From the NCBI GenBank assembly GCA_045047305.1, contig JASFYO010000009.1, positions 1 through 33,188 on the forward strand: 33,188 bases of DNA, in the 5' to 3' direction. The DNA comes from Planctomycetota bacterium (GTDB lineage Bacteria; Planctomycetota; UBA1135). Each line of letters starts with the position of its first letter. Position 1 is the stretch's first letter. A program made the position numbers and the translations under genes. The notes beneath the pieces are model-generated. The model was not told the origin of the DNA and ran no database searches. It saw only the letters and a program-made list of their open reading frames with translations. Shown in pieces: positions 2,638-21,067 of the stretch.

Positions 2638-3444
2638 TTGACCGAGTCCGAGATCAAGAAACCGCCACTCTACGAGGGCCCCCAACGCATTCTCTTCGAG
2701 GGTCGTTATCGCAAGCTGGTCCGCGACTTGCCGCAGACGATTTTTTATTGCCCAAAGTGCAAGGGGAAGGGCTGCAATACCTGTGAAGGATTTGGCCGCT
2801 TAACGCGGGACTCGGTGCAGGAGCTCATCGCGCGCGTGGCGATGCCGCGGTTTAAGGCGCGGCGCAACAAATTCCATGGCGCTGGGCGCGAAGACATGAA
2901 TGTGCGCATGCTTGGCAATGGGCGGCCCTTCGTATTTGAAATGCAGAAGGCCAAGCGCAGAGATGTGGATTTGGTGGACCTGGCCGATGAAATTAAGCGC
3001 CGCTCCGAGGACCGCATCGAGCTCCTTGACCTGAAATTGTGTGAGCGCTTCCGTGTCGCCGAGGTCAAGGAGATGCATTGTGAAAAGGAATATCTCGCGC
3101 GGGTCCGGTTCGATGAAGGAGTGAAGGTTAACGCTGAAGCGGTCGACGCCAAGCTCGCCGAGTTGCTCGAAGGACCACGCTTAGAGCTGCAACAAAGCAC
3201 TCCGCAACGTGTGGTGCATCGTCGTGCCGATAAGGTGCGTGAGCGCTGGATTGACATCACCGCATGGGAGCGGGATGGCGACGACTGGTTAGTCTCCATT
3301 TTGTCGCAGCATGGCACCTACATTAAAGAAGCAATCTCAAGCGATGGAGGGCGGACGGTGCCGTCGCTCGCGCAACTGCTTGGTGGCGCATGCACCTGTG
3401 TGGAGCTAGATGTTTTGAATATATTGCAGCCGCCCCACGCTTGA
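2638..3444 (+). CDS. pus10: Pus10-family tRNA pseudouridine synthase, catalytic domain only
   Basis: GRYRKLVRDLPQT; CPKC-x4-CNTC; FHGAGREDMNVRMLGNGRPFVFE (catalytic Asp in GRED); QSTPQRVVHRR; GTYIKE...GRTVPSL...ELDV. These Pus10 signatures occur in the expected order. Confidence 0.9.
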   Translation: MTESEIKKPPLYEGPQRILFEGRYRKLVRDLPQTIFYCPKCKGKGCNTCEGFGRLTRDSVQELIARVAMPRFKARRNKFHGAGREDMNVRMLGNGRPFVFEMQKAKRRDVDLVDLADEIKRRSEDRIELLDLKLCERFRVAEVKEMHCEKEYLARVRFDEGVKVNAEAVDAKLAELLEGPRLELQQSTPQRVVHRRADKVRERWIDITAWERDGDDWLVSILSQHGTYIKEAISSDGGRTVPSLAQLLGGACTCVELDVLNILQPPHA

Positions 3445-7949: not shown

Positions 7950-9020
7950 TCAATCCTGGTTTAGACTGCGCATCGGGATGGTGACGAAACTTTGCGTTTC
8001 CACGTGCACGGTGGCGGAGCGCATCACTTTGCGATAAGGACCACCATAAGCAGAGAAACTGTAATCGCCGGGGGGAAGGGAGGTAAACACCACCGTTCCA
8101 TCTTCACGCAACGCTAGGCTCTCGGAAAATCCCAGGCCTTTTTCGGTGCGCGTTGCCTGTACCCGCATCGTGCGCCAATCCTTTTGCGCGGTCTGCGGAC
8201 CATCAAGGAAGTTGACAGTCACGGTCGCGCTCCCCATTTTCTTCACCGTGAATTCCACATAAGCTTCCGGTGCCTCACGGCTAATCCCGATAACCTTCAG
8301 CTCGCTCAATGGGTTGCGGAAAGATCCCACGTAAATGTTGAATTCTCCATCGCGTAAGCCGCTGATGCGGAAGCGCCCATCTTTGTCGGTGGAGGCGGTG
8401 AGGGGTACTTGACTAGCGCCTGGTCGGTGACTGCGGAAAACGGCTGCAACCGGAATATGCGCCACAGGCTCGCCCTGCCCATCCCTTACATAGCCAACCA
8501 CGCTGGCTGCGGGGACCACCGCTACTGCGAAGAAGTGGTTGTTTTGCTCTACGGACAGAGTGAGCAATAAGTTTTGGTCGAGGCACTCTGGAGCAGTGAG
8601 CTTGAGCGTGTATTCACCGAATGGGATTCGTTCGAAGGTAAAAGTCGGGTCTTCTTCGGATGCCGGTGCGGTGGCGATGGCGTCTCCACCCGCCTGTGGA
8701 GTGAGGCTGAGGGTGATCGAGCGCGGCCAAATCACCCAGTTTGCAGCGACCACGCGTCCACCGATGACCCCAAACTTTGGTTGATAGCTGAGGGCGTCGC
8801 GGTTGGGGCGTGGCGGCAAGTCCACCGGTTCCAAAACTGCTCCTTTGGTCAGAGAGTCAGAATCCTGCTTCGAGGAATTCGGTAATCGGGGAACGTCGAC
8901 CTGGTTTGGGCCGATGCTTGAGTCAGAGCTGAGTACCCAAAACGCCGCCAGCGCCAGCATCAAGAGCAGGCCAGGAACCCACAGGTTGGTTCTTCCTCGG
9001 TTGGTGGTACGAAAGGGCAT
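7950..9020 (-). CDS. Membrane-anchored protein with carboxypeptidase-regulatory-like beta-sandwich repeats
   Basis: N-terminal TM; GYVRDGQGEPVAHIPV...TDKDGRFRISGLRDGEF, PFGEYTL and LPPGDYSF repeats. Confidence 0.75.
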   Translation of the reverse strand: MPFRTTNRGRTNLWVPGLLLMLALAAFWVLSSDSSIGPNQVDVPRLPNSSKQDSDSLTKGAVLEPVDLPPRPNRDALSYQPKFGVIGGRVVAANWVIWPRSITLSLTPQAGGDAIATAPASEEDPTFTFERIPFGEYTLKLTAPECLDQNLLLTLSVEQNNHFFAVAVVPAASVVGYVRDGQGEPVAHIPVAAVFRSHRPGASQVPLTASTDKDGRFRISGLRDGEFNIYVGSFRNPLSELKVIGISREAPEAYVEFTVKKMGSATVTVNFLDGPQTAQKDWRTMRVQATRTEKGLGFSESLALREDGTVVFTSLPPGDYSFSAYGGPYRKVMRSATVHVETQSFVTIPMRSLNQD

Positions 9021-9026
9021 CACGCG

Positions 9027-9066: not shown

Positions 9067-11562
9067 ATGATTCGCCGCCCTCTTCTTGTTATGGCACTGG
9101 CCCTGTTCGCAGGTTCCGCCACATCTTCCTTGCACGCCCAGACTTCCGACTCTGGCACCGCCACCACCACCAGTGCACAGGGGCAAGCCCAGCGTGTTGT
9201 CGTTCTTGGCATGGACGGCATGGATGCTGAAATGGCCCGTGATTGGATGGACGCCGGGGAGCTGCCTAACTTCCAACGCCTACGCGACGGAGGTACTTTT
9301 GCTCCGCTGATGCCGGCGAACCCCGCACAATCCCCTGTTTCTTGGGCGACCTTGAACACTGGAGTCAACCCTGGCAAGCACGGCATCTTCGACTTTGTGG
9401 GTATTAGTCGTAAGTATGGAAAACGGGAACCAGTGCGACTGAGTGCCGGTTTCCAAAAGGTCAAATACTTCACAGCTGAGGAGCTAGGGTTGACCCCGGC
9501 CCCTGGCGGCTCCAACTATATGTTGATGGGTGGTGGAGTGGTGTTGGGGCTGCTCTTGATGCTTGGTATTGGGCGTGTGAACAAGCCAGGTGGTTTGATT
9601 TTGGGCTTGGCCGTTGCTGGAGGAGCTGTGTTCTTCGGACAGGGTGAAGCTAGCGTGCTGCCAGCGACCTTCAAGGATTACGAAAGCTTGAACCACGCCA
9701 AAACTTATTGGGAATCCTTGGATGAAAATGGAATCCAATTTCGCGGTCAAGGCACGATTGTGGCTTACCCAACCCAAGAGCTTAAGAATGGAAAGCTGAT
9801 TGCCGGTCTCGGTGCCCCAGATGCAAAGGGCGGCTTGAACTCCAGCGCGATTTACACCACGGCTAAGGAGCGGAAGGGACGGCGTCGGAATTACGCTGCA
9901 CTTCCAGCAGCCGTAATCGAAGATGCGGAAGACTTTACCCTTTCGGCGGGCAAAGGTGCTGGTACGACCCGGGTATTTGAGTTCGTTAGCGAAGGCGGAC
10001 TTTTAAAGTCTTATCTTTATGGGCCAGCAAACTCCATTCTGAAGGCAAGCCTCCTTTCCGAACGGGAAAAGTTAATGGAAAGTGGCAGCGACCCAGTTCG
10101 CTTGAAGGAGGTCATCGCGTTGGTCGGTGATGGACATCGCAAGTATGGCAACGCAAGCTTGCTCAACACTTCGGTTCCTATCACGGCCAAATGGAATAAA
10201 GGTGAGTCGGTGGAGCTTTCAGTTGCTGGCGTAGCTCAAAACATTGCCCTCAACAAGTGGAGCGATTTTTACCAGGTGGAATTCCATTGGCACCCTTCTT
10301 ATAGCACTTGGGCTTTGGTTCGCTTTTGGGTGGAGGAGCGCGATGGAGAGCTTGAGGTTTTCGCTTCTCCGTTGCAGATTGACCCGCAAAATCCAACTCC
10401 AGGCAGTCGCATTTGCTGGCCAGCAAACTTCGCCGCCGACATCGAATCACGGATTGGGCGGTTTGAGACCCTTGGTTGGGCATGTCAGACCCACGCAGTC
10501 AAAGATGCAGAACTTTCCGACGACGCCTTTTTGGCCGACATCGAGTTTACTCTTGGTTGGCGTACCAAAATGTTGAAAGACGCGGTCGAGCAAGGTGATT
10601 GGAAAGTGTTGTTCCACTTTTTCGGAACCCCAGATCGCATCTGTCACATGCTGATGCGTCACATGGATCCACTCCACCCGCAGTACGATGAAGCCGAAGC
10701 CAACCGCATCGTGCATTACTTCGGCCAGGATTTTGCGCTAAAGGACAGTGCGCTCGTCATCTATAAGGAGATGGACAAGATCGTTGGCTATGTGCTCGAC
10801 GATGTCCTCAATGAGGAAGATGTCTTGATGATTGTCTCCGACCACGGCTTCGATAGTTTTCGTCGCCAGGTGGACCTGAACGCTTGGTTGGTGCAGGAAG
10901 GATTCATGTCGCTAGCGAATACTACAGCTCTTGGTATTCCGAAAACCGCATCGGACATGAGCAAGAGCACCTTGAAGTTCGTCGACTGGCGTGGCTCCAA
11001 GGCTTACTCGGTTGCGATTGGTAAGATTTACCTCAACATTAAGGGCCGTGAAGCCAAAGGCGTCGTAGCCCAAGAAGATGTGGATTCGGTTCTGGCCGAT
11101 ATCACCGAGCGCCTTTACGCCATGACCGATCCCGATTCTGGCGAGAAGGTGGTGAAGAAGGTTTACTTGCGCGATGAAATCTACAGTGGGCCTTATGTGC
11201 ATCGCTCGAAATCAGGTGACACCGAGGGCGCGGCTGAAATCACCATCGACTTCCATTCGGGTTACCGCGCTTCTTGGACTGTGACGGGCGGCGGCATCAC
11301 TTTGAAAGATGGCGTGAATGAAGACGGTGACACCATTGCGGTGGCTGGCGATTACATTTATGACAACGATTACGCTTGGTCTGGCGACCACTGTGGTGTT
11401 GACATCATGGAGGTTCAGGGCATCTTCTTTAGCAACAAACCACTCAGTCTGCCTTCCGGTGATACGTGGTACGACGCCACCCATCTGGCGCCAACCGTGT
11501 TGTCCTTGCAGGGCGTTGCGATCCCTGAAAATTACGATCGCGCCCCACTACATTTGAAGTAG
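9067..11562 (+). CDS. Exported alkaline-phosphatase-superfamily (NPP/COG3379-like) enzyme with internal hydrophobic hairpin
   Basis: Sec signal (...SSLHA|Q); VLGMDGMD, PAQSPVSWATLNTGVNPGKHGIFDF, PDRICH, VSDHGF, WSGDHC. Two hydrophobic segments at aa ~151-191. Confidence 0.85.
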   Translation: MIRRPLLVMALALFAGSATSSLHAQTSDSGTATTTSAQGQAQRVVVLGMDGMDAEMARDWMDAGELPNFQRLRDGGTFAPLMPANPAQSPVSWATLNTGVNPGKHGIFDFVGISRKYGKREPVRLSAGFQKVKYFTAEELGLTPAPGGSNYMLMGGGVVLGLLLMLGIGRVNKPGGLILGLAVAGGAVFFGQGEASVLPATFKDYESLNHAKTYWESLDENGIQFRGQGTIVAYPTQELKNGKLIAGLGAPDAKGGLNSSAIYTTAKERKGRRRNYAALPAAVIEDAEDFTLSAGKGAGTTRVFEFVSEGGLLKSYLYGPANSILKASLLSEREKLMESGSDPVRLKEVIALVGDGHRKYGNASLLNTSVPITAKWNKGESVELSVAGVAQNIALNKWSDFYQVEFHWHPSYSTWALVRFWVEERDGELEVFASPLQIDPQNPTPGSRICWPANFAADIESRIGRFETLGWACQTHAVKDAELSDDAFLADIEFTLGWRTKMLKDAVEQGDWKVLFHFFGTPDRICHMLMRHMDPLHPQYDEAEANRIVHYFGQDFALKDSALVIYKEMDKIVGYVLDDVLNEEDVLMIVSDHGFDSFRRQVDLNAWLVQEGFMSLANTTALGIPKTASDMSKSTLKFVDWRGSKAYSVAIGKIYLNIKGREAKGVVAQEDVDSVLADITERLYAMTDPDSGEKVVKKVYLRDEIYSGPYVHRSKSGDTEGAAEITIDFHSGYRASWTVTGGGITLKDGVNEDGDTIAVAGDYIYDNDYAWSGDHCGVDIMEVQGIFFSNKPLSLPSGDTWYDATHLAPTVLSLQGVAIPENYDRAPLHLK

Positions 11563-11600
11563 GGGACGCGATGTGGGTATGTCGGGGGCTGAGTTACGAC

Positions 11601-12104
11601 TCAGTCGCCGGCGTAGCCGAGGTCGCTGAGGTCAGCACCTGGGCCTTGGCTACGAATCGCTTCAAAGGCAGCAGCGGGCTTGCCGAGTTTTTCCTTGAGG
11701 TCTGGAAAGGTGGCCAGAGTGTAGGCCACAAGTTCATCGCCGACGTCGGCCATGGCAGAGATGGCTGCGGTATCGCAGAGTTTCAGCAGTGCATCGCCCG
11801 TGAGTTGATCTGAAAAGTCCGACTTGAGGCGCTCAAACGCGGCCATCGCACCGTTTTCGTCACCTTCCTTGAGGTAAAGGTTGACTAGCGATACCAGCGC
11901 ATCGCCCTGAAGCTTTGCATCGCCGTTTTCAGCAGCGTACTCATAGCCAGCTTGCGCGGTCTCCGGATTTCCAGAGGCGGCAGCGGCGTCGGCCTGGTCC
12001 ATAGCGGCAATCGGATCGGTGAAGGTAATCGATTCTTTGGAATCGCCGGAGCAGGCAGTTAAGCCAAGAATCAGGGCAAGGGGGAGGGTGTGAATGAGAC
12101 GCAT
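11601..12104 (-). CDS. Helical (TPR-like) lipoprotein with C-terminal LxxLGY tail
   Basis: Lipobox LTAC; Ala-rich helical body; ends GPGADLSDLGYAGD*. Confidence 0.75.
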   Translation of the reverse strand: MRLIHTLPLALILGLTACSGDSKESITFTDPIAAMDQADAAAASGNPETAQAGYEYAAENGDAKLQGDALVSLVNLYLKEGDENGAMAAFERLKSDFSDQLTGDALLKLCDTAAISAMADVGDELVAYTLATFPDLKEKLGKPAAAFEAIRSQGPGADLSDLGYAGD

Positions 12105-12307
12105 GATGTGTGTCGGGCCGGAGAGCTCCGGCGTGGAATCTTACTCTTTACGGCATGAAGAGGCTCTTTTAGTTTACTTTCTGCTCACAGATGCGGCCGA
12201 AAAACAGGGAATTGCCTATAGAAAGCGGCCAAACACTCCGATAAGGCTACGATTGGAGCCAAAAAGCACTCCTGTGAGGTATCTATTCGCACTCCAATCG
12301 GTTACCC

Positions 12308-12316
12308 TGCTATCCT
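12308..12316 (+). promoter_or_regulatory. Putative extended -10 (TGcTATCCT) for the RHH-sat operon
   Basis: TG-n-TAnnnT ending 18 nt before ATG 12335, in a divergent intergenic region. Confidence 0.4.
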
Positions 12317-12334
12317 TCTGATCCTCTTTGGACC

Positions 12335-12553
12335 ATGCAAAAAGAAACCCGCGTCACTGTTAAAATCCCGCGTCCGCTTTACCGGCGGATTCAGCAGGTG
12401 ATTGAGAATACCGGTTTCTCGTCTCCCACGGAATTCATCGTCTACGTCCTCCGCGACCTGATGAGCGAAGTGGAGTCTAAAGAAGAAAAGGAATTTAGCC
12501 CCGAAGAATTGCAGGCGATTACGCAGAAGTTGAAGAACCTCGGCTACCTGTAA
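12335..12553 (+). CDS. Ribbon-helix-helix (CopG-like) protein with C-terminal LxxLGY tail
   Basis: Beta-strand VTVKIP, then helices (LYRRIQQVI / GFSSPTEFIVYVLR), acidic linker, ends KLKNLGYL*. Confidence 0.8.
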   Translation: MQKETRVTVKIPRPLYRRIQQVIENTGFSSPTEFIVYVLRDLMSEVESKEEKEFSPEELQAITQKLKNLGYL

Positions 12554-12588
12554 ACCCTTTTAACCAAACCATTTAACCCTTCAGAATC

Positions 12589-13740
12589 ATGATTGCTCCG
12601 CACGGTGGAAAACTGATCAACCGCGTCGTCGAAGGTGGCGAGCGCGACTCCTTGCTCGCAAAGGCTGCATCTTTGCCAGTCCTCACCCTCAACTCCCGCG
12701 AAGCCAGCGATCTTGAAATGATCGCCATTGGCGCCATGAGCCCTTTGGAGGGTTTCATGGGTGAAGCCGATTACAACGGCGTCGTGGAAAACATGCACCT
12801 CGCATCCGGTACGGCATGGCCACTTCCTGTGGTTTTTGCTGCAAAAGATGGCGAAACCGCAGCTGCTGGTTCTGAGTACGCTCTGAAAGGCGAAGACGGA
12901 AGCATCTACGGCATCATTGCCGTCGACAGCGTCTACAGCCCAGACAAGAAGAACGAGCTAGAAAAGTGCTACCAGGGCGACGAAGAGCACCCAGCATGGG
13001 GCTACCTCGCATCCATTGGTGACACCTATGTAGGTGGTCAAATCACGGTGGCAAACCTGCCTGCTTACGAGAAGCACAATGAGTACCGCCTCACCCCAGT
13101 GCAGACCCGCGCTGCTTTTGAGGAGAAAGGTTGGGATAGCATCGTCGCTTTCCAAACTCGTAACCCAATCCACCGCGCTCACGAATACTTGACCAAAGTT
13201 GCGCTGGAGCAGACCGATGGCCTCCTGATTCACCCATTGGTAGGTGACACCAAGGCCGATGACATCCCTTCCGATGTCCGCATGAAGTGCTACCACGCAC
13301 TGCTGAACAAGTACTACCCACTCGATCGCACCATGCTCGGCGTTTACCCGCAGGCCATGCGTTACGGCGGCCCACGCGAGGCAATCCTGCACGCGCTTTG
13401 CCGTCAGAACTACGGTTGTACGCACATCATCATCGGTCGCGATCACGCTGGCGTCGGTTCGTACTACGGCACCTTCGATGCGCAACAGATTTTCGAGCAG
13501 TTTGCCGATGGAGAGATTCTCATCGAGACTCTTCTCTTTGAGCACGCGTTCTACTGTAAGTTGACCGGCGGCATGGCTTCGACCAAGTCCAGTCCAGCCA
13601 CCAACGACCAGAAAATCTTCCTTTCCGGCACCAAGGTCCGCGAAATGCTCGCAAACGGCGAACGTCCGCCAGCCGAGTTTACGCGTCTGGAAGTCGCCGA
13701 CATTCTGATCGCATCCTACGCCCAACCGGCGCAGGCTTAG
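12589..13740 (+). CDS. sat: Sulfate adenylyltransferase (ATP sulfurylase, Sat type)
   Basis: PHGGKL, SPLEGFM, FQTRNPIHRAHE, MRYGGPREA, IIGRDHAGVG, LSGTKVR. Confidence 0.97.
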   Translation: MIAPHGGKLINRVVEGGERDSLLAKAASLPVLTLNSREASDLEMIAIGAMSPLEGFMGEADYNGVVENMHLASGTAWPLPVVFAAKDGETAAAGSEYALKGEDGSIYGIIAVDSVYSPDKKNELEKCYQGDEEHPAWGYLASIGDTYVGGQITVANLPAYEKHNEYRLTPVQTRAAFEEKGWDSIVAFQTRNPIHRAHEYLTKVALEQTDGLLIHPLVGDTKADDIPSDVRMKCYHALLNKYYPLDRTMLGVYPQAMRYGGPREAILHALCRQNYGCTHIIIGRDHAGVGSYYGTFDAQQIFEQFADGEILIETLLFEHAFYCKLTGGMASTKSSPATNDQKIFLSGTKVREMLANGERPPAEFTRLEVADILIASYAQPAQA

Positions 13741-13770
13741 TTCCTAATAAACATCGCAAGCTAGAGATTC

Positions 13771-14682
13771 ATGTTTGGATTCGGTAAAAAACGCGAGAAC
13801 AACCATCTGTTCATCATCACCCTCGACTCGTGCCGCTTTGACTCGTTCATGGCGGCCGAGCCGGAGAACATCGCCAAGTTGTGCGGTGGTCTTAGCAATG
13901 TTGAGAAGCGTTATTCCTACGCTGGATGGACGGCTCCGTCGCACTACAACCTCCTGACCGGCCTGGTGCCGCACGTGAGTCCTACCGAGGTCTACGCTTC
14001 GGAGTACTACAAAGAGGATCTCTATAAGTTCAAGGATCGCCTGGGTGTGGAAGACGCTGGCTTTGAAGCCATGATTCCACACCTTTGGCTACCGGCGTAC
14101 ATGAAGAAGAAGGGCTACGAGACCCATGCATTGGTTTCGTTGCCGGTTCTGAACCCTGCAACCGGTATCAACCGCGACTTCGACACTTTCAAACTCATGC
14201 CAAAGCACAACGACATGTTGGCTATGTTGGATGACATGGAAGCGCACAAGAAGCGTGATTCTAAGGGTCTAAAGGGCAATACGCCGCAGTTCTACTTGAT
14301 GAACGTCGGTGAGACCCACTACCCATACGGCTTGCCCGATGAGGACAAGAACGATTTGCCGCACATCTCTGGTGTGAACGGCATCTTCAAGAAGCTGGAT
14401 AAGCAGATTGGTGAAGATGGTGTCCTGATCTCGGACCAAGAGTCCGGGGACTTCATGGATGCAGAACTCATCGAGAAGTGTCGCCAGCGTCAAATCAACA
14501 CGGTGAGGTACCTCGATCAAGAGGTCTTCCCACGGTTCTACGACCTGCTACCGAAAGATAGTTGGGTCATCGTCACCGCTGACCACGGTGAACTGTTCGG
14601 TGAAGGTGGCTATTTTGGCCACGGCCCGATCATGCACGAAAAGTGTTTCGAGGTTCCCTTCCTCGAAGGAAAACTCAAATAA
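13771..14682 (+). CDS. Cytoplasmic sulfatase-fold protein with Thr at the nucleophile position (no formylglycine motif)
   Basis: ITLDSCR, WTAPSH (in place of C/S-x-P-x-R), ETHYPY, TADHGELFGE, GHG, EVPF; no signal peptide. Confidence 0.8.
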   Translation: MFGFGKKRENNHLFIITLDSCRFDSFMAAEPENIAKLCGGLSNVEKRYSYAGWTAPSHYNLLTGLVPHVSPTEVYASEYYKEDLYKFKDRLGVEDAGFEAMIPHLWLPAYMKKKGYETHALVSLPVLNPATGINRDFDTFKLMPKHNDMLAMLDDMEAHKKRDSKGLKGNTPQFYLMNVGETHYPYGLPDEDKNDLPHISGVNGIFKKLDKQIGEDGVLISDQESGDFMDAELIEKCRQRQINTVRYLDQEVFPRFYDLLPKDSWVIVTADHGELFGEGGYFGHGPIMHEKCFEVPFLEGKLK

Positions 14683-14712
14683 TCATCTCCGTTTAACAAA
14701 AAGATTAGACCC

Positions 14713-15264
14713 ATGTCTGACCACAAAGGATTCGTACTCTGGTTCACCGGCCTCTCTGGCTCTGGTAAGTCCACTCTCTCCCGCATGATCGAAGGCGAGT
14801 TGCGTAAGCGCGACTGCAACGTCGAAGTGCTCGATGGCGATGAAGTTCGCGAGAACCTCAGCAAAGGCCTCGGTTTCTCCAAGGAGGACCGTGACACCAA
14901 CGTCCGTCGTATCGGCTATGTTGCCAAGCTTCTGAGCCGTAACGGCGCCATCTGCATCACTGCTGCCATCTCTCCGTATAAGGATGTGCGCGACCAATGC
15001 CGTGCGATGAATCGTCACTTCGTTGAGATTTACGCAGATTGCTCGATTGAGGAGCTCACCCGTCGTGACGTCAAAGGCCTCTACGCCAAGGCGCTTTCCG
15101 GCGAGATCAAGAACTTCACCGGCATCTCTGACCCTTACGAGGCTCCTGAGAACGCGGAAGTCACCATCAACTCCGAGACTCAGTCGGAAGAAGAGTCGCT
15201 CAAGGCCATCATGGATTACCTTGAGGGTCAGGGTTTTATCCCTGCAGTAGCAGCAAACGCATAG
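14713..15264 (+). CDS. cysC: Adenylyl-sulfate (APS) kinase
   Basis: WFTGLSGSGKST P-loop, LDGDEVR, LGFSKEDR, AISPY, RDVKGLY, FTGISDPYEAP. Confidence 0.97.
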   Translation: MSDHKGFVLWFTGLSGSGKSTLSRMIEGELRKRDCNVEVLDGDEVRENLSKGLGFSKEDRDTNVRRIGYVAKLLSRNGAICITAAISPYKDVRDQCRAMNRHFVEIYADCSIEELTRRDVKGLYAKALSGEIKNFTGISDPYEAPENAEVTINSETQSEEESLKAIMDYLEGQGFIPAVAANA

Positions 15265-15277
15265 ATTGTTTCCCTTG

Positions 15278-15314
15278 ACTGAGGGGAAAGGGAAAAAACC
15301 CCTTTCCCCTCAGT
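15278..15314 (+). terminator. Perfect 15-bp stem-loop after cysC (terminator or mRNA-stabilising hairpin)
   Basis: ACTGAGGGGAAAGGG-aaaaaac-CCCTTTCCCCTCAGT followed by TCTGTTTC. Confidence 0.75.
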
Positions 15315-15344
15315 TCTGTTTCACGCATAATTCGCCCCTTCGCC

Positions 15345-17510
15345 ATGAAGCGGTCCCGCAGATTCCTTCTCCCCCTCGCTGTCCTTTTCGCATGGCTCAG
15401 CGCCCCCGATCCCGCCTCGGCCTACATTGGCCCAGGAGCGGGTTTCGCATTTTTGTCAGGCGGCTTGGTCCTTATTGGATCGCTGTTCCTGGCGGTTGGC
15501 ATCTTGCTGATCTATCCACTGAAGATGGTCTACCGGATTGCCACTGGCGCCGGAAAGATTAAGGGCGAAACCAAACGCCTGGTCATCATTGGATTCGACG
15601 GCATGGACCCGCGCCTGGCGCAGCGGTTCATGGACGAAGGTCGCATGCCGAACATGAAGGCGCTTGCGGAGGAGGGAGGCTTCTCTCCATTGCAAACGGC
15701 GTATCCGTCTATGTCGCCGGTTGCATGGTCGTCGTTCTCCACTGGAGTCGATGCCTCGCGCCACAATATCTTTGATTTCATTACACGTGACCCGTGTACT
15801 TATATGCCGATTCTTTCCAGCACTGAGATCACTTCGGCAGAGAAAGCCTTGGTGAAGATTGGCAATCTGGAATTGTTCAAGCGTCCTAGCTCAAGCATCA
15901 GGTTGTTGCGCAAAGGTATTCCTTGGTGGAAGACTTTGGGCGATAAGAAGATTTTCTCCAACATCATCCGTGTGCCGATTACCTTCCCACCGGAAGAACA
16001 TCACGGCGTATTGTTGAGTGGCATGTGTGTTCCCGACTTGAAGGGAACTCAAGGCAGTTTCACTTTTTGGACTAGCGATGAAACCCTGACCGGTCCGGAT
16101 GCCGGCGGCGATGTCTTGCTGGTTGGAAAAAATGGCAACGCCTACCGCTGTCCGATTACCGGCCCGACCGATCCTTCGCAGGAACAGGCCACGCCGATGC
16201 GCGTACCGATGAAGGTCGAGGTCCTTGTGGAAGGCGAGAAGCTTCGCCTTAACATTGGGGCCAAGGGAGATGAGCAAATCGTTGACCTCGGAGTGAAGGA
16301 TTACTCGGATTGGATTACGCTCGAGTTTAAGGCGGCCAAAGGCAAAGCCAAGGTCACCGGAATCGCGCGTTTCTATTGCATGGGCACCAGCCCTGAGTTC
16401 GGCCTCTACATGACGCCGATTCAGATTGATCCATCCAATCCCGCGATGCCGATTTCGCATCCCACGGTTTACTCGATTTACCTGGCGAAGAAACATGGTC
16501 CATTTTCTACGCTTGGACTTGCCGAAGATACTTGGGCCTTGAACGAGCGCGTCATCGATGAGGAAGCGTTTTGGAAGCAAGCGCTGAACATCTGGGATGA
16601 GCGGCGTAAGCAGTTGTTCGATGCGCTGCAAAACACGCCGAAGGGCTCCATCGTCTGTGTCTTTGATGGCACGGACCGCGTGTCGCACATGTTCCATCGT
16701 TACTTGGATGAAAGTCACCCTGCAAACGCAGGCAAGGATACCGAGTGGGGCAAGGATAAGGTCGCCGAGATCTATTCCATCGCCGATGGCTTGGTTGCCG
16801 ATGTACGCAAAAAGCTAAATCCGAAGAAGGATCGCTTAATGATCATCTCGGACCATGGTTTCTGTCAGTTTAAGCGCGGGGTCAACCTCAACGCTTGGTT
16901 GCGCGACAATGGATACTTGGTGCTGAAATCCGATGCACCGGTCGATGACGCAAGTGGCAAGCAGACTTCACGTGATTGGCTGATGGATGTCGACTGGCAT
17001 AAGACCAAGGCTTTTGCACTTGGACTCACCGGCATGTTCATTAACCGCAAAGCGCGCGAGCGTGATGGCATTGTGAAAGAGGGCGCCGAGTTGGAAGCCT
17101 TGAAAGCAGAAATCGTAGAGAAGCTTTCCGCCCTGAAGGATCCAAAGGATGGCGAGTTGATCTTCAAGGAGGTATTCGACGCCGGCAAGATCTTTACTGG
17201 CCCATATGTCTTCCAGGCCCCAGACTTGTTTATGGGCTATAAGCGCGGTTACCGCAACTCGTGGGACTGTGCTACCGGTGCTTGCCCGCCGGAAGTATTT
17301 TCGGATAACACCAAGTCGTGGTCGGGTGACCACTGCATTGACCCGCGTGAGGTTCCAGGAGTCATTTTCTCGGATCGTCCGCTGAACACTGACACCCCAA
17401 ACCTGATGGACCTCGGTCCAACCGCGCTGCGCATGTTCGGAGTCGACGTGCCGAAATATATGCAGGGGCAACCTCTGTATGGCCCTCGCAACGAAGAGGT
17501 GAAGTCATGA
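15345..17510 (+). CDS. Membrane-anchored alkaline-phosphatase-superfamily (COG3379-like) enzyme; signal peptide + YIGPG + TM
   Basis: Signal ending ASA|YIGPGAG, then a TM helix and a basic stretch; IIGFDGMD, PSMSPVAWSSFSTG, TDRVSH, ISDHGF, WSGDHC. Confidence 0.85.
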   Translation: MKRSRRFLLPLAVLFAWLSAPDPASAYIGPGAGFAFLSGGLVLIGSLFLAVGILLIYPLKMVYRIATGAGKIKGETKRLVIIGFDGMDPRLAQRFMDEGRMPNMKALAEEGGFSPLQTAYPSMSPVAWSSFSTGVDASRHNIFDFITRDPCTYMPILSSTEITSAEKALVKIGNLELFKRPSSSIRLLRKGIPWWKTLGDKKIFSNIIRVPITFPPEEHHGVLLSGMCVPDLKGTQGSFTFWTSDETLTGPDAGGDVLLVGKNGNAYRCPITGPTDPSQEQATPMRVPMKVEVLVEGEKLRLNIGAKGDEQIVDLGVKDYSDWITLEFKAAKGKAKVTGIARFYCMGTSPEFGLYMTPIQIDPSNPAMPISHPTVYSIYLAKKHGPFSTLGLAEDTWALNERVIDEEAFWKQALNIWDERRKQLFDALQNTPKGSIVCVFDGTDRVSHMFHRYLDESHPANAGKDTEWGKDKVAEIYSIADGLVADVRKKLNPKKDRLMIISDHGFCQFKRGVNLNAWLRDNGYLVLKSDAPVDDASGKQTSRDWLMDVDWHKTKAFALGLTGMFINRKARERDGIVKEGAELEALKAEIVEKLSALKDPKDGELIFKEVFDAGKIFTGPYVFQAPDLFMGYKRGYRNSWDCATGACPPEVFSDNTKSWSGDHCIDPREVPGVIFSDRPLNTDTPNLMDLGPTALRMFGVDVPKYMQGQPLYGPRNEEVKS

Positions 17511-19651
17511 AGCGCACGCTAAAACTTGCTGCTGTATTGCTTGTTAGTCTCAGCCTTTTGGGTTGTGGCGAAAAGCAGTCGGAAACTCGCGTCGTAGTGT
17601 TCGGTGTCGATGGTCTCGACCCAGAAATGCTGCAGGAGCGTATCGATCGTGGCATGATGCCAAACTTCAAGAAGTTACTGGATAACGGCGCAACCTTTGC
17701 AAAGCTGCAGACTTCTTGGCCTCCGCAATCTCCGGTGGCTTGGTCGAACTTCATCACTGGAGTGAATCCGGGTAAGCATGGTTTGTATGACTTCATTCAT
17801 GCCGACTACGCGAAGAAGAACTACGGAGTGAAGACCTCGATGGCGGATACCAGTCCTGTTGGCATGGATGTCACTTTGTTTGGCTACGACGTCCCGTTGA
17901 CTGGCGGCAAGACTACCAGCACACGCAAATTCCCAGCTTTCTGGGAGACTCTTTCTGATCAAGGCGTACCCACATACGTGCACCGTATGCCTGCAAGTTA
18001 TCCGCTTACGCAAACGAATGCCACGGTTTACCCCGACATGGGCACGCCTGATTTGGTCGGGGCAGCTTCGGGTATCTCTTACCTTTGGACCGAAAAACCA
18101 TGGCAGGGCAAAGCTCTGAGTGGTGAGTCTTATCGTGTGGAGGTCATAGAATTGAATCGCCGCCGCGATGATATGTGGATTCAATGGACCAAACTGTATG
18201 GTCCACCGGAAACCATTCTCAACGTCGATGCCCTCAAGGCTCAAATCCATGAAGCATCTGATGCGGGCGACAACGAAACCGCCAACGCTTTGCAAAAGGA
18301 AATCGAGCGCAAGCAAGAAGTCTCAGTGCCGATTGCTTTGATGGTTGATAATACCGGCGAAGCTCCACAGCTTGCTGTGCAAATTGATCACCAGTACGCC
18401 ACTGCTGCCTTAGGGGAGTGGAGTAACTGGGTTAAGGTGGAGTTCTCGGTGATGGGCGGCTTGATGCCAATCCCCGGCTACACCCGTTTCCGCTTTTTGT
18501 CGGCCGCGCCTTTCGAGGTTTACGCACTTCCAATTCAGTTCGACCCTTTTGCGCCGGCGGCTGAGATTTCCATGCCACCGGAAGCCAGTGCTGAATTAGC
18601 GGAATCCATCGGCCCCTACATCGTGCAAGGATTTGCCGATGCTTATAAGTCCTACAAGGCTGGCTTGCTCGACACCTCGGGATTCATCAACGAGTCCGAC
18701 ATGGTGTTGGCAGAGCGCACCAAGATGATGCACTACGGTCTCGACCAAATCGAGGAAACCGGCGGGCTCTTGTTCCTCTACACCGGCTCGCTCGACATGC
18801 GCTGTCACATGTTGTGGCACACCTCGGATAAGGCTCACCCACACCAAGAACCAGCGGGGGAGTACCTCGGCGTTCCTTACGATGAGCAGATTGACCGTAT
18901 TTACTCGCAGGTCGACATCATGCTTGGCGAAATGGTGAGTCGCATCGAGAAGATGGAGTTAGAAACGGGCAGCAAGATTGAGTTGATTGTGATGTCGGAC
19001 CACGGTTTTGCGCCCTTCCGGCGCAAGATGCATATCAACGATTGGTTAATCCAAGAGAAGTACTTGGTGTTAAAGGAAGGCGTTACGGAAACCCACGATC
19101 TTACATTGAAACTAGATGCCGATGGCCATCCAGAGCCTGGCACTGGTCCTGTGGATTGGAGTAAAACCAGGGCCTATTGTGTCGGTTTCAACGGCATCAT
19201 TTTGAATCGTAAAGGCCGCGAAGCGGAAGGCATTGTCGAAGACTCTGAGATAGAAGCCCTTCTCGCGGAAATCGCCGGCAAATTATTGGCGCTGGAGGAT
19301 GGCGGTGTTTCAGTCCTTACCCGAGTGCTTCCTGCCACGGAAGTCTTCCACGGCCCAGCCGGAATCATGAAGAATGCCCCGGACTTGCAGCTTGGGTTTA
19401 ACGTCGGTTTTGGCGCATCCGATGAATGTGCAACGGGCGGTGTCGTCGGCGAGGGTGAATTCCTCGTGGATAACGATAGCCGCTGGTCAGGTTCTCACCT
19501 GATGGACCCCGAGCTTGTACGGGGTACGATTATTTCTACGTCTGGAAAATCCTTGTCGAAGGACCCGACGCTAGAAGATATCACCGCAACCCTCTACAGT
19601 CTGTTCAACGTCACTCCCCCTGAGGGCCTGGACGGACGCCCTCTCTACTAA
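17507..19651 (+). CDS. Lipoprotein alkaline-phosphatase-superfamily (COG3379-like) enzyme
   Basis: Lipobox LLGC; VFGVDGLD, PPQSPVAWSNFITGVNPGKHGLYDF, LDMRCH, MSDHGF, WSGSH. ATGA overlap with the previous gene. Confidence 0.85.
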   Translation: MKRTLKLAAVLLVSLSLLGCGEKQSETRVVVFGVDGLDPEMLQERIDRGMMPNFKKLLDNGATFAKLQTSWPPQSPVAWSNFITGVNPGKHGLYDFIHADYAKKNYGVKTSMADTSPVGMDVTLFGYDVPLTGGKTTSTRKFPAFWETLSDQGVPTYVHRMPASYPLTQTNATVYPDMGTPDLVGAASGISYLWTEKPWQGKALSGESYRVEVIELNRRRDDMWIQWTKLYGPPETILNVDALKAQIHEASDAGDNETANALQKEIERKQEVSVPIALMVDNTGEAPQLAVQIDHQYATAALGEWSNWVKVEFSVMGGLMPIPGYTRFRFLSAAPFEVYALPIQFDPFAPAAEISMPPEASAELAESIGPYIVQGFADAYKSYKAGLLDTSGFINESDMVLAERTKMMHYGLDQIEETGGLLFLYTGSLDMRCHMLWHTSDKAHPHQEPAGEYLGVPYDEQIDRIYSQVDIMLGEMVSRIEKMELETGSKIELIVMSDHGFAPFRRKMHINDWLIQEKYLVLKEGVTETHDLTLKLDADGHPEPGTGPVDWSKTRAYCVGFNGIILNRKGREAEGIVEDSEIEALLAEIAGKLLALEDGGVSVLTRVLPATEVFHGPAGIMKNAPDLQLGFNVGFGASDECATGGVVGEGEFLVDNDSRWSGSHLMDPELVRGTIISTSGKSLSKDPTLEDITATLYSLFNVTPPEGLDGRPLY

Positions 19652-19672
19652 CCTCCAGAATCGGAGAACATC

Positions 19673-19870
19673 ATGTTTGGTGGAAATAAACTAAAGATCA
19701 ACAAGGACATCATCGAGCGCTGCAAAAAGTGTTCGGAGGTCGCCGGCTACTCTTCCGTGGAGGAGTTCGTCGAGCACATTCTCGAGAAGGAGTTGAAAGG
19801 CATTGAAGGTGCCGGCACTTCTGACGAGGCGATTACCGAAAGCCTGCGTGGCCTCGGTTACATCAGCTAA
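19673..19870 (+). CDS. Small RHH-like protein with C-terminal LxxLGY tail (paralog of 12335-12553)
   Basis: GGAGA SD-like sequence upstream; AGYSSVEEFVEHIL aligns with TGFSSPTEFIVYVL; ends SLRGLGYIS*. Confidence 0.8.
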   Translation: MFGGNKLKINKDIIERCKKCSEVAGYSSVEEFVEHILEKELKGIEGAGTSDEAITESLRGLGYIS

Positions 19871-19900
19871 CTTAAACCGAATCGAAATACCCTTACCACG

Positions 19901-20815
19901 ATGAAACAACGAATCATCGTCATTGGCATCTGCGCACTTCTAGTCGCGGTTGGCGTTCTTGCGCCAGCGGTGATGAATGCAATCTTCGATGTCTTCGACT
20001 TAGCCTTCGGCTGGGCCGGCCCATTCGCGGTCGTCACCATTGTTTCCGGATTGGTTGGGGTGTTGTTCATCCTTGCCTTCCCGCATGTTTCCTCCCAAGA
20101 GGGGATCAAGTCGGTGAAGTCAAAGATCAGCTACAACCTGGTTGCGATTCGATTGTTCCAGGACGATCTCCCAACCGTCATGCGTTCCTTGGGCGCCACG
20201 CTCTCATGGAACTTTGCTTACTTGGGTTTGAACATGCTACCGATGGTGGTGCTTGCTGCGCCATTCATGATTGTGTGGTTCCAGCTCAACGCGCTTTATG
20301 CTTATCAACCAGTCCATGCTGGTTCCGATCAGATGGTGGTGGTGGAGTTAAGTGAAGCCGTGAGTAAGCCTCAAGATGTGGTCGTCACCATGCCTTCGGG
20401 GGAGGTGCTTCAATCCCGCGTCAATCTTGCTTCACGCCACGATGGCACCAACCTCATTCCGGCGACCGTGCTGGTGCGCTACACCCCGAGTGTTGCAGGT
20501 AGCCAAGAGTTGACCTTCAGTTACGCCGGGGAAAAGGTCACTAAAACGGTAGAGGTCGATACCGATCCACGCCGTTTGTCGCGTGTCCGCACCTCCGACC
20601 CGATGGGCGGTTTTATTGCCCAGACCGATCCAATCGTGCTTTACGGTGATCCTATTCTTCCGTCTAGTTCCTTCGTGAGCAACGTCACCGTGGATTACGC
20701 CGCAGCACCACTTGGCTTTCTTGATGGTGGGGAAATGTCGATCATGATTTGGTTCGTGGTGATGTCGATGGTGGTTGGCTTTGCACTAAAAGGCCCTCTT
20801 GGGGTTGAGATTTAG
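19901..20815 (+). CDS. Membrane protein, DUF106/EMC3/TMCO1 (Oxa1-superfamily)-like, with an extracytoplasmic beta-rich insert
   Basis: TM, then SQEGIKSVK helical linker, then LPMVVLAAPF TM, a ~140-aa beta-rich domain, and a final TM WFVVMSMVVGFALKGPLGV. Family assignment is by eye. Confidence 0.55.
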   Translation: MKQRIIVIGICALLVAVGVLAPAVMNAIFDVFDLAFGWAGPFAVVTIVSGLVGVLFILAFPHVSSQEGIKSVKSKISYNLVAIRLFQDDLPTVMRSLGATLSWNFAYLGLNMLPMVVLAAPFMIVWFQLNALYAYQPVHAGSDQMVVVELSEAVSKPQDVVVTMPSGEVLQSRVNLASRHDGTNLIPATVLVRYTPSVAGSQELTFSYAGEKVTKTVEVDTDPRRLSRVRTSDPMGGFIAQTDPIVLYGDPILPSSSFVSNVTVDYAAAPLGFLDGGEMSIMIWFVVMSMVVGFALKGPLGVEI

Positions 20816-20841
20816 GCTCAAGCTGACACCACGCTGAAGCT

Positions 20842-20873
20842 ACAAGGCTCCGAGGCTCTCCTCGGAGCCTTGT
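20842..20873 (+). terminator. Perfect 14-bp stem-loop at the end of the sulfur/AP operon
   Basis: ACAAGGCTCCGAGG-ctct-CCTCGGAGCCTTGT, 26 nt after the stop at 20815; weak U-tract. Confidence 0.65.
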
Positions 20874-21067
20874 GCATTCTGTTGAGAAAAGGGAGCCAGA
20901 CCTGGGCATGGGAAATCTCATCAATCTTCTCCTTTGAAGGAAATAGGGCATAAGGTCCTCCTGCCGCACAGAAATATTTGTGAGCCTCTTGCCTAACTCC
21001 ACGTCTACCTAGCAAACGGGGAAGGCACGCATTCTTCCTCATTCTAGAAATTCAGGATGAAATCGAA

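Follow-up and report, generated by a model that had tools for sequence, protein, structure and literature searches.

The stretch of DNA analysed here (the window; positions 1 to 33,188 of contig JASFYO010000009.1, GenBank assembly GCA_045047305.1) comes from a bacterium of the Planctomycetota whose 2.83 Mb genome is 87.7% complete. On its forward strand lies a run of genes in which the enzymes of 3'-phosphoadenosine 5'-phosphosulfate (PAPS) synthesis stand beside paired proteins of the alkaline phosphatase (AP) superfamily and a membrane protein. The run opens with RHH1 (12335-12553), a ribbon-helix-helix-like (RHH-like) protein and likely autoregulator of sat-cysC. It continues with Sat (12589-13740), an ATP sulfurylase (PF01747, E 8e-93; TIGR00339 over cut-off); SULF (13771-14682), a soluble sulfatase-fold protein of 303 residues (PF00884, E 1e-9); and CysC (14713-15264), an adenosine 5'-phosphosulfate (APS) kinase (PF01583, E 5e-61). 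Next come AP1 (15345-17510) and its paralog AP2 (17507-19651), both matching PF01663 and sharing the fold of nucleotide pyrophosphatases/phosphodiesterases (NPPs), then a second RHH-like protein, RHH2 (19673-19870), and the membrane protein MEM (19901-20815), which resembles Ylp1 and DUF106 proteins of the Oxa1 superfamily. A hairpin of 15 pairs with a weak U tract (20841-20874, forward strand, -31.4 kcal/mol), present as a single copy in the genome, follows the last gene and may be a terminator. Three CACTCC repeats (at 12234, 12267 and 12290 of the forward strand, spanning 12234-12298) form a predicted operator upstream of RHH1, and a promoter scan of the window returned fewer sites than in shuffled sequence.

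A preliminary description of this DNA had proposed the reading frames and families of the run, and both were borne out, the frames in their places by an open reading frame (ORF) check and the families by Pfam and TIGR scans. The run and its closing hairpin were also as described. The lipoprotein and third AP paralog placed just upstream, however, do not simply extend it. The gene of the lipoprotein, a tetratricopeptide repeat (TPR)-like protein (11601-12104), lies on the minus strand, divergent from RHH1, and thus cuts the paralog AP0 (9067-11562, forward strand, PF01663) off from the run. The gene order of the cluster is kept in nearly all 33 close loci, as far as the contigs extend. It recurs in distant lineages as well and is not a product of chance.

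How widely is the arrangement distributed? Of 351 Planctomycetota genomes, 56 gave a match to MEM (48 strong and 8 weak, the latter unused), as did 59 of 201 genomes of an Acidobacteriota sample that includes the unpublished genome G402, and the core AP1-AP2-RHH2-MEM recurs across both phyla. The AP1 relatives retrieved are mostly from Planctomycetota. We assembled 59 distant loci flanked on either side by 2.5 kb or more, including one duplicate (L046/L050) and two weak MEM-only loci (L068 and L069). These carry a long AP in 57 cases, MEM in 57, RHH2 in 55, cysC in 18 and sat in 17; a CysQ-like gene for a 3'-phosphoadenosine 5'-phosphate (PAP) phosphatase lies within 6 kb in 13, and a PAPS-related gene of any kind lies within that distance in 34 of the 59. 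For comparison at genome level, 80 carriers, chosen for spread from the 106 published genomes with a strong MEM match and drawn equally (40 each) from the two phylum samples, were set against 80 control genomes from the same two samples, including the unpublished G377, that had been called MEM-negative from a few scored candidates each. Among these related genomes APS kinase was found in 80/80 carriers versus 44/80 controls, which substantiates the tie to PAPS across genomes that had been proposed for the cluster.

What is the PAPS made for? Sat and CysC together make PAPS, and a second copy of either was not found in the genome. Since neither a PAPS reductase nor a sulfite reductase was found in this genome, which is 87.7% complete, we rejected sulfate assimilation as the purpose of the PAPS, in agreement with the preliminary description. 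Nor does the window offer a familiar consumer: none of the 28 ORFs scanned matched the sulfotransferase families PF00685, PF13469 and PF03567, PAPS reductase or sulfite reductase in a family scan, again as had been stated.

The gene placed between sat and cysC suggests an answer. SULF has the invariant residues D19, T54, H183, D271, H272 and H284, with Thr as nucleophile in 11/11 sequences, and no solved relative by phmmer. Formylglycine sulfatases (S1) are defined by the catalytic motif (C/S)-x-P-x-R (PMC5066984, in the part available); this motif is absent from SULF, which has W-T54-A-P-S-H in its place, and formylglycine sulfatase activity was rejected on the strength of the nucleophile Thr, which is also found in all 15 predicted exported relatives read (below). 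In other genomes the commonest extra neighbour of the module is a 200-residue P-loop sulfotransferase (20 loci). Of the 80 carriers, 40 gave a match to this small sulfotransferase, 22 to SULF and 7 to a short AlkP protein (motif PPITVPAW), with overlap in a single carrier (G041); the controls yielded 6 small sulfotransferases and no SULF, from a search that covered these two families. Because the three families almost never coincide, it is likely that one or another of them occupies a single PAPS-using slot. Mapped on a 59-tip tree of AP1, the label for this slot changes 12 times, SULF 5 and short AlkP 5, and sister tips differ, with the labels of metagenome loci and of loci retrieved as AP1 relatives taken from the locus only. 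In the window genome the small sulfotransferase was not found. From this distribution, SULF probably serves as the PAPS-using first step, with the same job as the small P-loop sulfotransferase. The claim that AP-superfamily enzymes stand in for a canonical sulfotransferase consequently holds in the lineage of the window and some others, where SULF replaces it, and fails as a property of the system, given the P-loop enzyme in 40/80 carriers. A separate short AlkP family (PEISSVSW) sits between cysC and AP1 in L072-L078, L047, L049 and L154, often alongside a P-loop sulfotransferase.

Fusions, known from protein sequences alone, join the same parts. The best 120 of 2373 long sulfotransferase forms comprise 13 fusions to AP1, 89 fusions of the order AlkP-LGY-(TPR)-sulfotransferase and 18 without an AlkP domain; in 89/89 of the short-AlkP fusions a helix ending in Leu-Gly-Tyr (LGY) lies between the two enzymes. 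All four sulfotransferase-AP1 fusions that were read have two hydrophobic segments, namely the former signal segment and the helix that spans the membrane, flanking a YIGPG motif, which places AP1 and the PAPS-using domain on the same, cytoplasmic side. Solved relatives of the small sulfotransferase include tyrosylprotein and cytosolic types alike (E about 5e-4), so they do not tell its acceptor.

AP0, AP1 and AP2 share 26-30% pairwise identity and a common core: an NPP-type domain that has the two-metal ligands, uses Ser within S-P-V-[AS]-W as its nucleophile and contains a beta-rich insertion. The family fold and two-metal ligand set are present in all three (Pfam over cut-off; best Foldseek match an NPP, E 3e-10), while the hallmark Thr nucleophile in T-F-P-N-H is replaced by the Ser motif. 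The AP1 model (predicted local distance difference test (pLDDT) score 88) likewise matches NPPs best, with Ser124 as nucleophile and D85, D444, H448, D503, H504 and H663 as ligand residues. At its N-terminus AP1 has a signal-like segment, the sequence Y27-I-G-P-G, one membrane helix and a basic stretch; the Tyr of Y-x-G-P-G is kept in 101/102 AP1 sequences and in 96/96 of an alignment column count. Two homologs, in L123 and L120, have almost no leader ahead of YIGPG. AP2 proteins bear a lipobox or another export signal, in the window an LLGC lipobox, with Ser75 as nucleophile. These topologies, read by eye and with a hydropathy script, predict that the catalytic domain of AP1 faces the cytoplasm and that AP2 is exported to the outer face, in support of the original assignment. 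Two loci, L086 and L088, have AP2-RHH2-MEM with no adjoining AP1 and an AP2 with a twin-arginine-like leader.

In a tree of long APs the three paralogs form three clades. AP0, with a hydrophobic hairpin and Ser89, is peripheral: it is missing from 10/21 close loci with full upstream flank, and its clade occurs in genomes in which sat, cysC and MEM were not found. We therefore rejected AP0 as part of a PAPS chain, and with it the idea that all four AP and sulfatase-fold enzymes form a single chain. Among ten controls rich in Thr-type proteins (below), six have a long AP, which shares the AP0 hairpin in five of them and lacks it in one. Divergent from AP0, on the minus strand of the window (7950-9023), is a gene for an exported CarboxypepD_reg protein, and this pairing recurs in G312 and G257 without the PAPS module.

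The last gene of the run encodes MEM. When compared with solved proteins, the MEM profile gave one match under E 1, archaeal MJ0480/Ylp1 (PDB 5C8J, E 1.5e-4), a member of the Oxa1 superfamily (PMC5868721, in the part available), and MEM is by this measure a relative of Ylp1. The kinship rests on the sequence profile, as fold searches listed no family member. The MEM model (pLDDT 90) has helices at 41-63, 66-85, 90-133 and 277-295 that would fit the family layout; Foldseek returned nothing at E 0.001, and the best Z score against solved folds (8.1) was to a helical hairpin. The window MEM does not match PF01956, for which one distant homolog reached E 6e-4, under the cut-off, and 0/28 distant MEM homologs matched Pfam. 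A canonical YidC is located elsewhere in the genome. Two loci contain a second, distant bacterial DUF106-like family (L068:7696-8601 and L069:8008-8859), whose neighbours are phosphoenolpyruvate-utilising, pyruvate phosphate dikinase-like genes and beta-propeller genes, not AP genes.

RHH1 and RHH2 are homologous (28% identity, E 9e-8) and weakly RHH-like, with family scores under the cut-off (RHH_1, best E 0.007, 5/19 members). Of the 17 distant loci carrying sat, 14 have RHH1 next to it. At least one CACTCC/GGAGTG motif lies upstream of RHH1 in 41/47 cases and at least two in 27/47, compared with 8.4% and 0.3%, respectively, for random stretches of 200 bases, and because of this conserved repeat RHH1 is likely a true regulator that represses the operon there. 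A corresponding operator ahead of AP1 was considered and rejected (one motif in 13/92, two in 0/92). Elsewhere in the genome the strict operator-like motif forms a close pair just once, at G000:C2:137027-137079.

RHH1, RHH2 and the lipoprotein all end in L-x-x-L-G-Y (Tyr71, Tyr63 and Tyr164, respectively); SULF, AP0, AP1 and AP2 lack this tail. In 150 RHH representatives, collected with a profile that itself favours Tyr, the tail column holds Tyr in 144 and Phe in 1, whereas an internal Tyr column of the same proteins holds Tyr in 105 and Phe in 40. A profile of the LGY tail only retrieved little beyond its own members. An apparent AP2-RHH2 fusion, P0264, was set aside as a probable frameshift artefact. 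The LGY lipoprotein was found in close relatives only; in L006, L007, L011, L020 and L027 it occurs in tandem duplicates, some with a decayed tail.

In the window genome the tail also ends 16 predicted exported sulfatase-like proteins, recognized by export signals or several membrane helices, and two short cytoplasmic AlkP proteins. The nucleophile is Thr in 15/15 tailed sulfatase-like proteins read; many of the 16 have 3-5 N-terminal membrane helices, and ten combine the Thr nucleophile with a membrane anchor and an exported sulfatase-like domain. Their genes are scattered over contigs C4, C5, C7, C14, C15, C19, C25, C28, C31, C37, C41, C58, C77 and C88 (L168-L184), one in a polysaccharide locus on C7 and others next to genes for a polysaccharide flippase or a UDP-glucose dehydrogenase. 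The C7 locus (L172; G000:C7:50000-69000) has an ATP-binding cassette exporter, a GSCFA protein, three ordinary sulfotransferases, a MurJ-like flippase, a Wzy-like protein and one tailed Thr-type protein. Counted with a whole-domain profile (A9) on the best 20 candidates per genome, Thr-type proteins were found in 78/80 carriers (median 9) versus 43/80 controls (median 1).

Taken together, these observations lead us to favour a direct covalent sulfuryl relay from PAPS to the periplasm, to which we assign a probability a little over one half (roughly 0.55). Sat and CysC would make PAPS, and SULF would use it to charge a carrier with sulfate; the likeliest one is the LGY-tail Tyr of RHH2, a core subunit and candidate sulfuryl carrier. 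At the cytoplasmic face AP1 would take the sulfuryl group on Ser124 and, aided by MEM, pass it to a carrier that crosses the membrane, either a lipid or its own Tyr27 at the outer helix end; insertases have been reported to scramble lipids (10.1101/2023.09.01.555937, in the part available). The lipoprotein AP2 would then take the group on Ser75 and load the LGY tails of the TPR lipoprotein, a candidate periplasmic carrier, and of the 16 predicted exported sulfatase-like proteins, which once loaded would sulfate glycans or proteins of the envelope. RHH1 would repress the operon at the CACTCC repeats, and AP0 would run a parallel, PAPS-independent branch. The parts of this scheme differ in strength. 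Predicted topology and fixed gene linkage make it fairly likely that AP1, MEM and AP2 carry the group across the membrane. That Tyr residues are the sulfuryl carriers, as the fusions, the tail pattern and the invariance of Tyr would suggest, is possible but rather unlikely. More doubtful still is the full protein-tyrosine relay, in which the group would pass from PAPS to the Tyr of a swinging LGY tail, to Ser124 and then to Tyr27 of AP1, with Tyr27 sliding through the groove of a repurposed Oxa1-family insertase and AP2 charging the LGY tails of Thr-type periplasmic sulfotransferases.

Several observations weigh against a sulfuryl relay. The closest solved structures to AP1 are two-zinc phosphodiesterases, whose metal ligands it retains. 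Two other AP1 Tyr columns are conserved in 96/96 sequences, so the invariance of Tyr27 is no proof of a carrier role. Within 6 kb, 25/59 distant loci have no sat, cysC, cysQ or sulfotransferase; 12/80 carriers have none of the three first-step families; Thr-type proteins occur in 43/80 controls, five or more of them in 23/80; and the genomes behind all carrier and control counts are related, so that the counts are not independent. The AP0 clade occurs with Thr-type LGY proteins in G312 (93% complete), G257 (91%), G355 and G365, where sat, cysC and PF01507 gave no match, which means that the tail is not reserved for sulfate and that AP0 can work without PAPS. Finally, the preliminary description had named a canonical sulfotransferase or CysH elsewhere in the genome as evidence against itself: no PAPS reductase was found, but five ordinary sulfotransferases, also PAPS users, are present in polysaccharide loci on contigs C7 and C53.

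Could the AP enzymes instead handle phosphate? The first-step enzyme might sulfate a small alcohol or a nucleotide-activated head group, leaving phosphoryl chemistry to AP1 and AP2: a sulfated phospho-head group would be moved onto a lipid and off again outside, and sulfate would cross inside a phosphodiester. LtaS, EptA and OpgB move phospholipid head groups, and AP0 and the LGY tail of PAPS-free genomes perhaps act with a phospholipid donor. The NPP fold with its full two-metal ligand set fits such chemistry, as do the sister clade AP0, which shares their active site, adds a membrane hairpin and is found without PAPS genes, and the Thr-type LGY proteins found without cysC; the AP0 clade and the LGY tails of PAPS-free genomes keep this explanation a live rival for AP1 and AP2. 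We nevertheless regard it as unlikely, since sulfotransferase, LGY helix and AlkP domain are fused in one chain, no nucleotidyltransferase family appears among the recurring neighbour clusters, and the archaeal AP-superfamily proteins Agl30 and Agl31 (below) add bare sulfate to sugars (PMC11980604, in the part available).

Two further alternatives were weighed. In one, distinctly improbable in our view, the end product of the module is a single sulfated compound, either a membrane lipid or a lipid-linked glycan; MEM merely inserts the short N-terminal tail of AP1, the LGY helix serves only for docking, and the exported sulfatase-like proteins have nothing to do with the module. The near-leaderless AP1 homologs of L123 and L120 could indeed need a dedicated insertase, the conserved RHH1 operator makes at least one RHH protein a regulator, and L086 and L088 keep AP2-RHH2-MEM without an adjoining AP1. 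A docking helix should tolerate Phe, however, yet 1 of 150 has it, and the enrichment of Thr-type LGY proteins with the module (78/80 versus 43/80) is hard to reconcile with unrelated proteins. The other alternative, very improbable, takes AP1 as a hydrolase that trims APS, PAPS or PAP in the cytoplasm and AP2 as a scavenger of sulfate esters or nucleotides outside, with PAPS made for the ordinary sulfotransferases alone. Its appeal is that the nearest characterised relatives are hydrolases and that five ordinary sulfotransferases sit in polysaccharide loci. Against this, PAP is already dealt with by CysQ-like genes, reductases that could make use of scavenged sulfate were not found, and the formylglycine motif is missing from SULF and its relatives (PMC5066984, in the part available). 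This alternative also fails to explain why the enzymes are invariably paired with a Ylp1-like protein, why a sulfotransferase is fused to AP1 and why three families exchange in the first-step slot.

Elsewhere in the window, the forward strand encodes a Pus10 C-terminal domain (2638-3444; TIGR01213, 266 bits, over cut-off), an archaeal/eukaryote-type tRNA pseudouridine synthase in a bacterium, and the minus strand a 319-residue RNase HII-like protein (681-1640) with weak, split family matches.

Why would such a module matter? PAPS is made in the cytoplasm, and a sulfuryl relay would be a candidate route for activated sulfate out of it, with SULF as a proposed new type of sulfotransferase and an Oxa1-family protein recruited to an enzyme operon. 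If this is true, many Thr-type "sulfatases" would build sulfated envelopes rather than degrade sulfated polymers, which would change the reading of marine and soil genomes. Should the full tyrosine relay also hold, the module would do for sulfate what DsbD does for electrons, and genes now annotated as sulfatases would be reassigned as a large class.

Among known systems, LtaS, EptA and OpgB resemble the ten anchored, tailed proteins in their Thr nucleophile, membrane anchor and exported sulfatase-like domain; they use phospholipid donors, and we know of no link to PAPS and no LGY tail among them. NPPs (the Xanthomonas NPP structures 2GSN and 7N1S; ENPP1) share the fold and two-metal ligand set of the AP enzymes, which differ in that they have Ser in S-P-V-A-W rather than Thr in T-F-P-N-H, contain some 250 inserted residues, are 10-11% identical to NPPs and are predicted to be paired on two membrane faces. 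MEM matches the profile of the group of Ylp1/MJ0480 (DUF106), EMC3, TMCO1 and Get1 over the first transmembrane helix, the coiled coil and the second transmembrane helix, and weakly over the last helix (PMC5868721, in the part available); unlike them it is bacterial, has an inserted beta-sandwich and belongs to an enzyme operon alongside a canonical YidC. The closest genetic precedent for AP-fold proteins in sulfation is Agl30/Agl31 of Halobacterium salinarum, sulfatase-like members of the AP superfamily, one membrane-bound and one soluble, that are needed for glycan sulfation and sufficient for it in Haloferax volcanii (PMC11980604). The Discussion of that paper neither names a sulfate donor nor settles how the two proteins act, and its available text describes no relay, AP1/AP2 pair or Ylp1 partner. 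Hfx. volcanii, used as a control for our APS kinase search, gave no match, so that, given the glycan sulfation reported there, a missing cysC does not exclude sulfation. In caprazamycin biosynthesis the PAPS-dependent sulfotransferase Cpz8 and the PAPS-independent Cpz4 form a two-step phenolic sulfate relay (PMC4257720), which parallels our scheme in that a sulfotransferase loads a phenolic carrier and a second enzyme passes the sulfate on; there, however, the carrier is a small pyrone, the second enzyme is an arylsulfate sulfotransferase and the available text describes no membrane crossing. The literature covered, which left subscription papers and bioRxiv preprint supplements aside, held no description of the present system, and none of its nearest known counterparts brings together a module for PAPS, a pair of AP-fold enzymes on the two faces of a membrane and a protein of the Oxa1 family.

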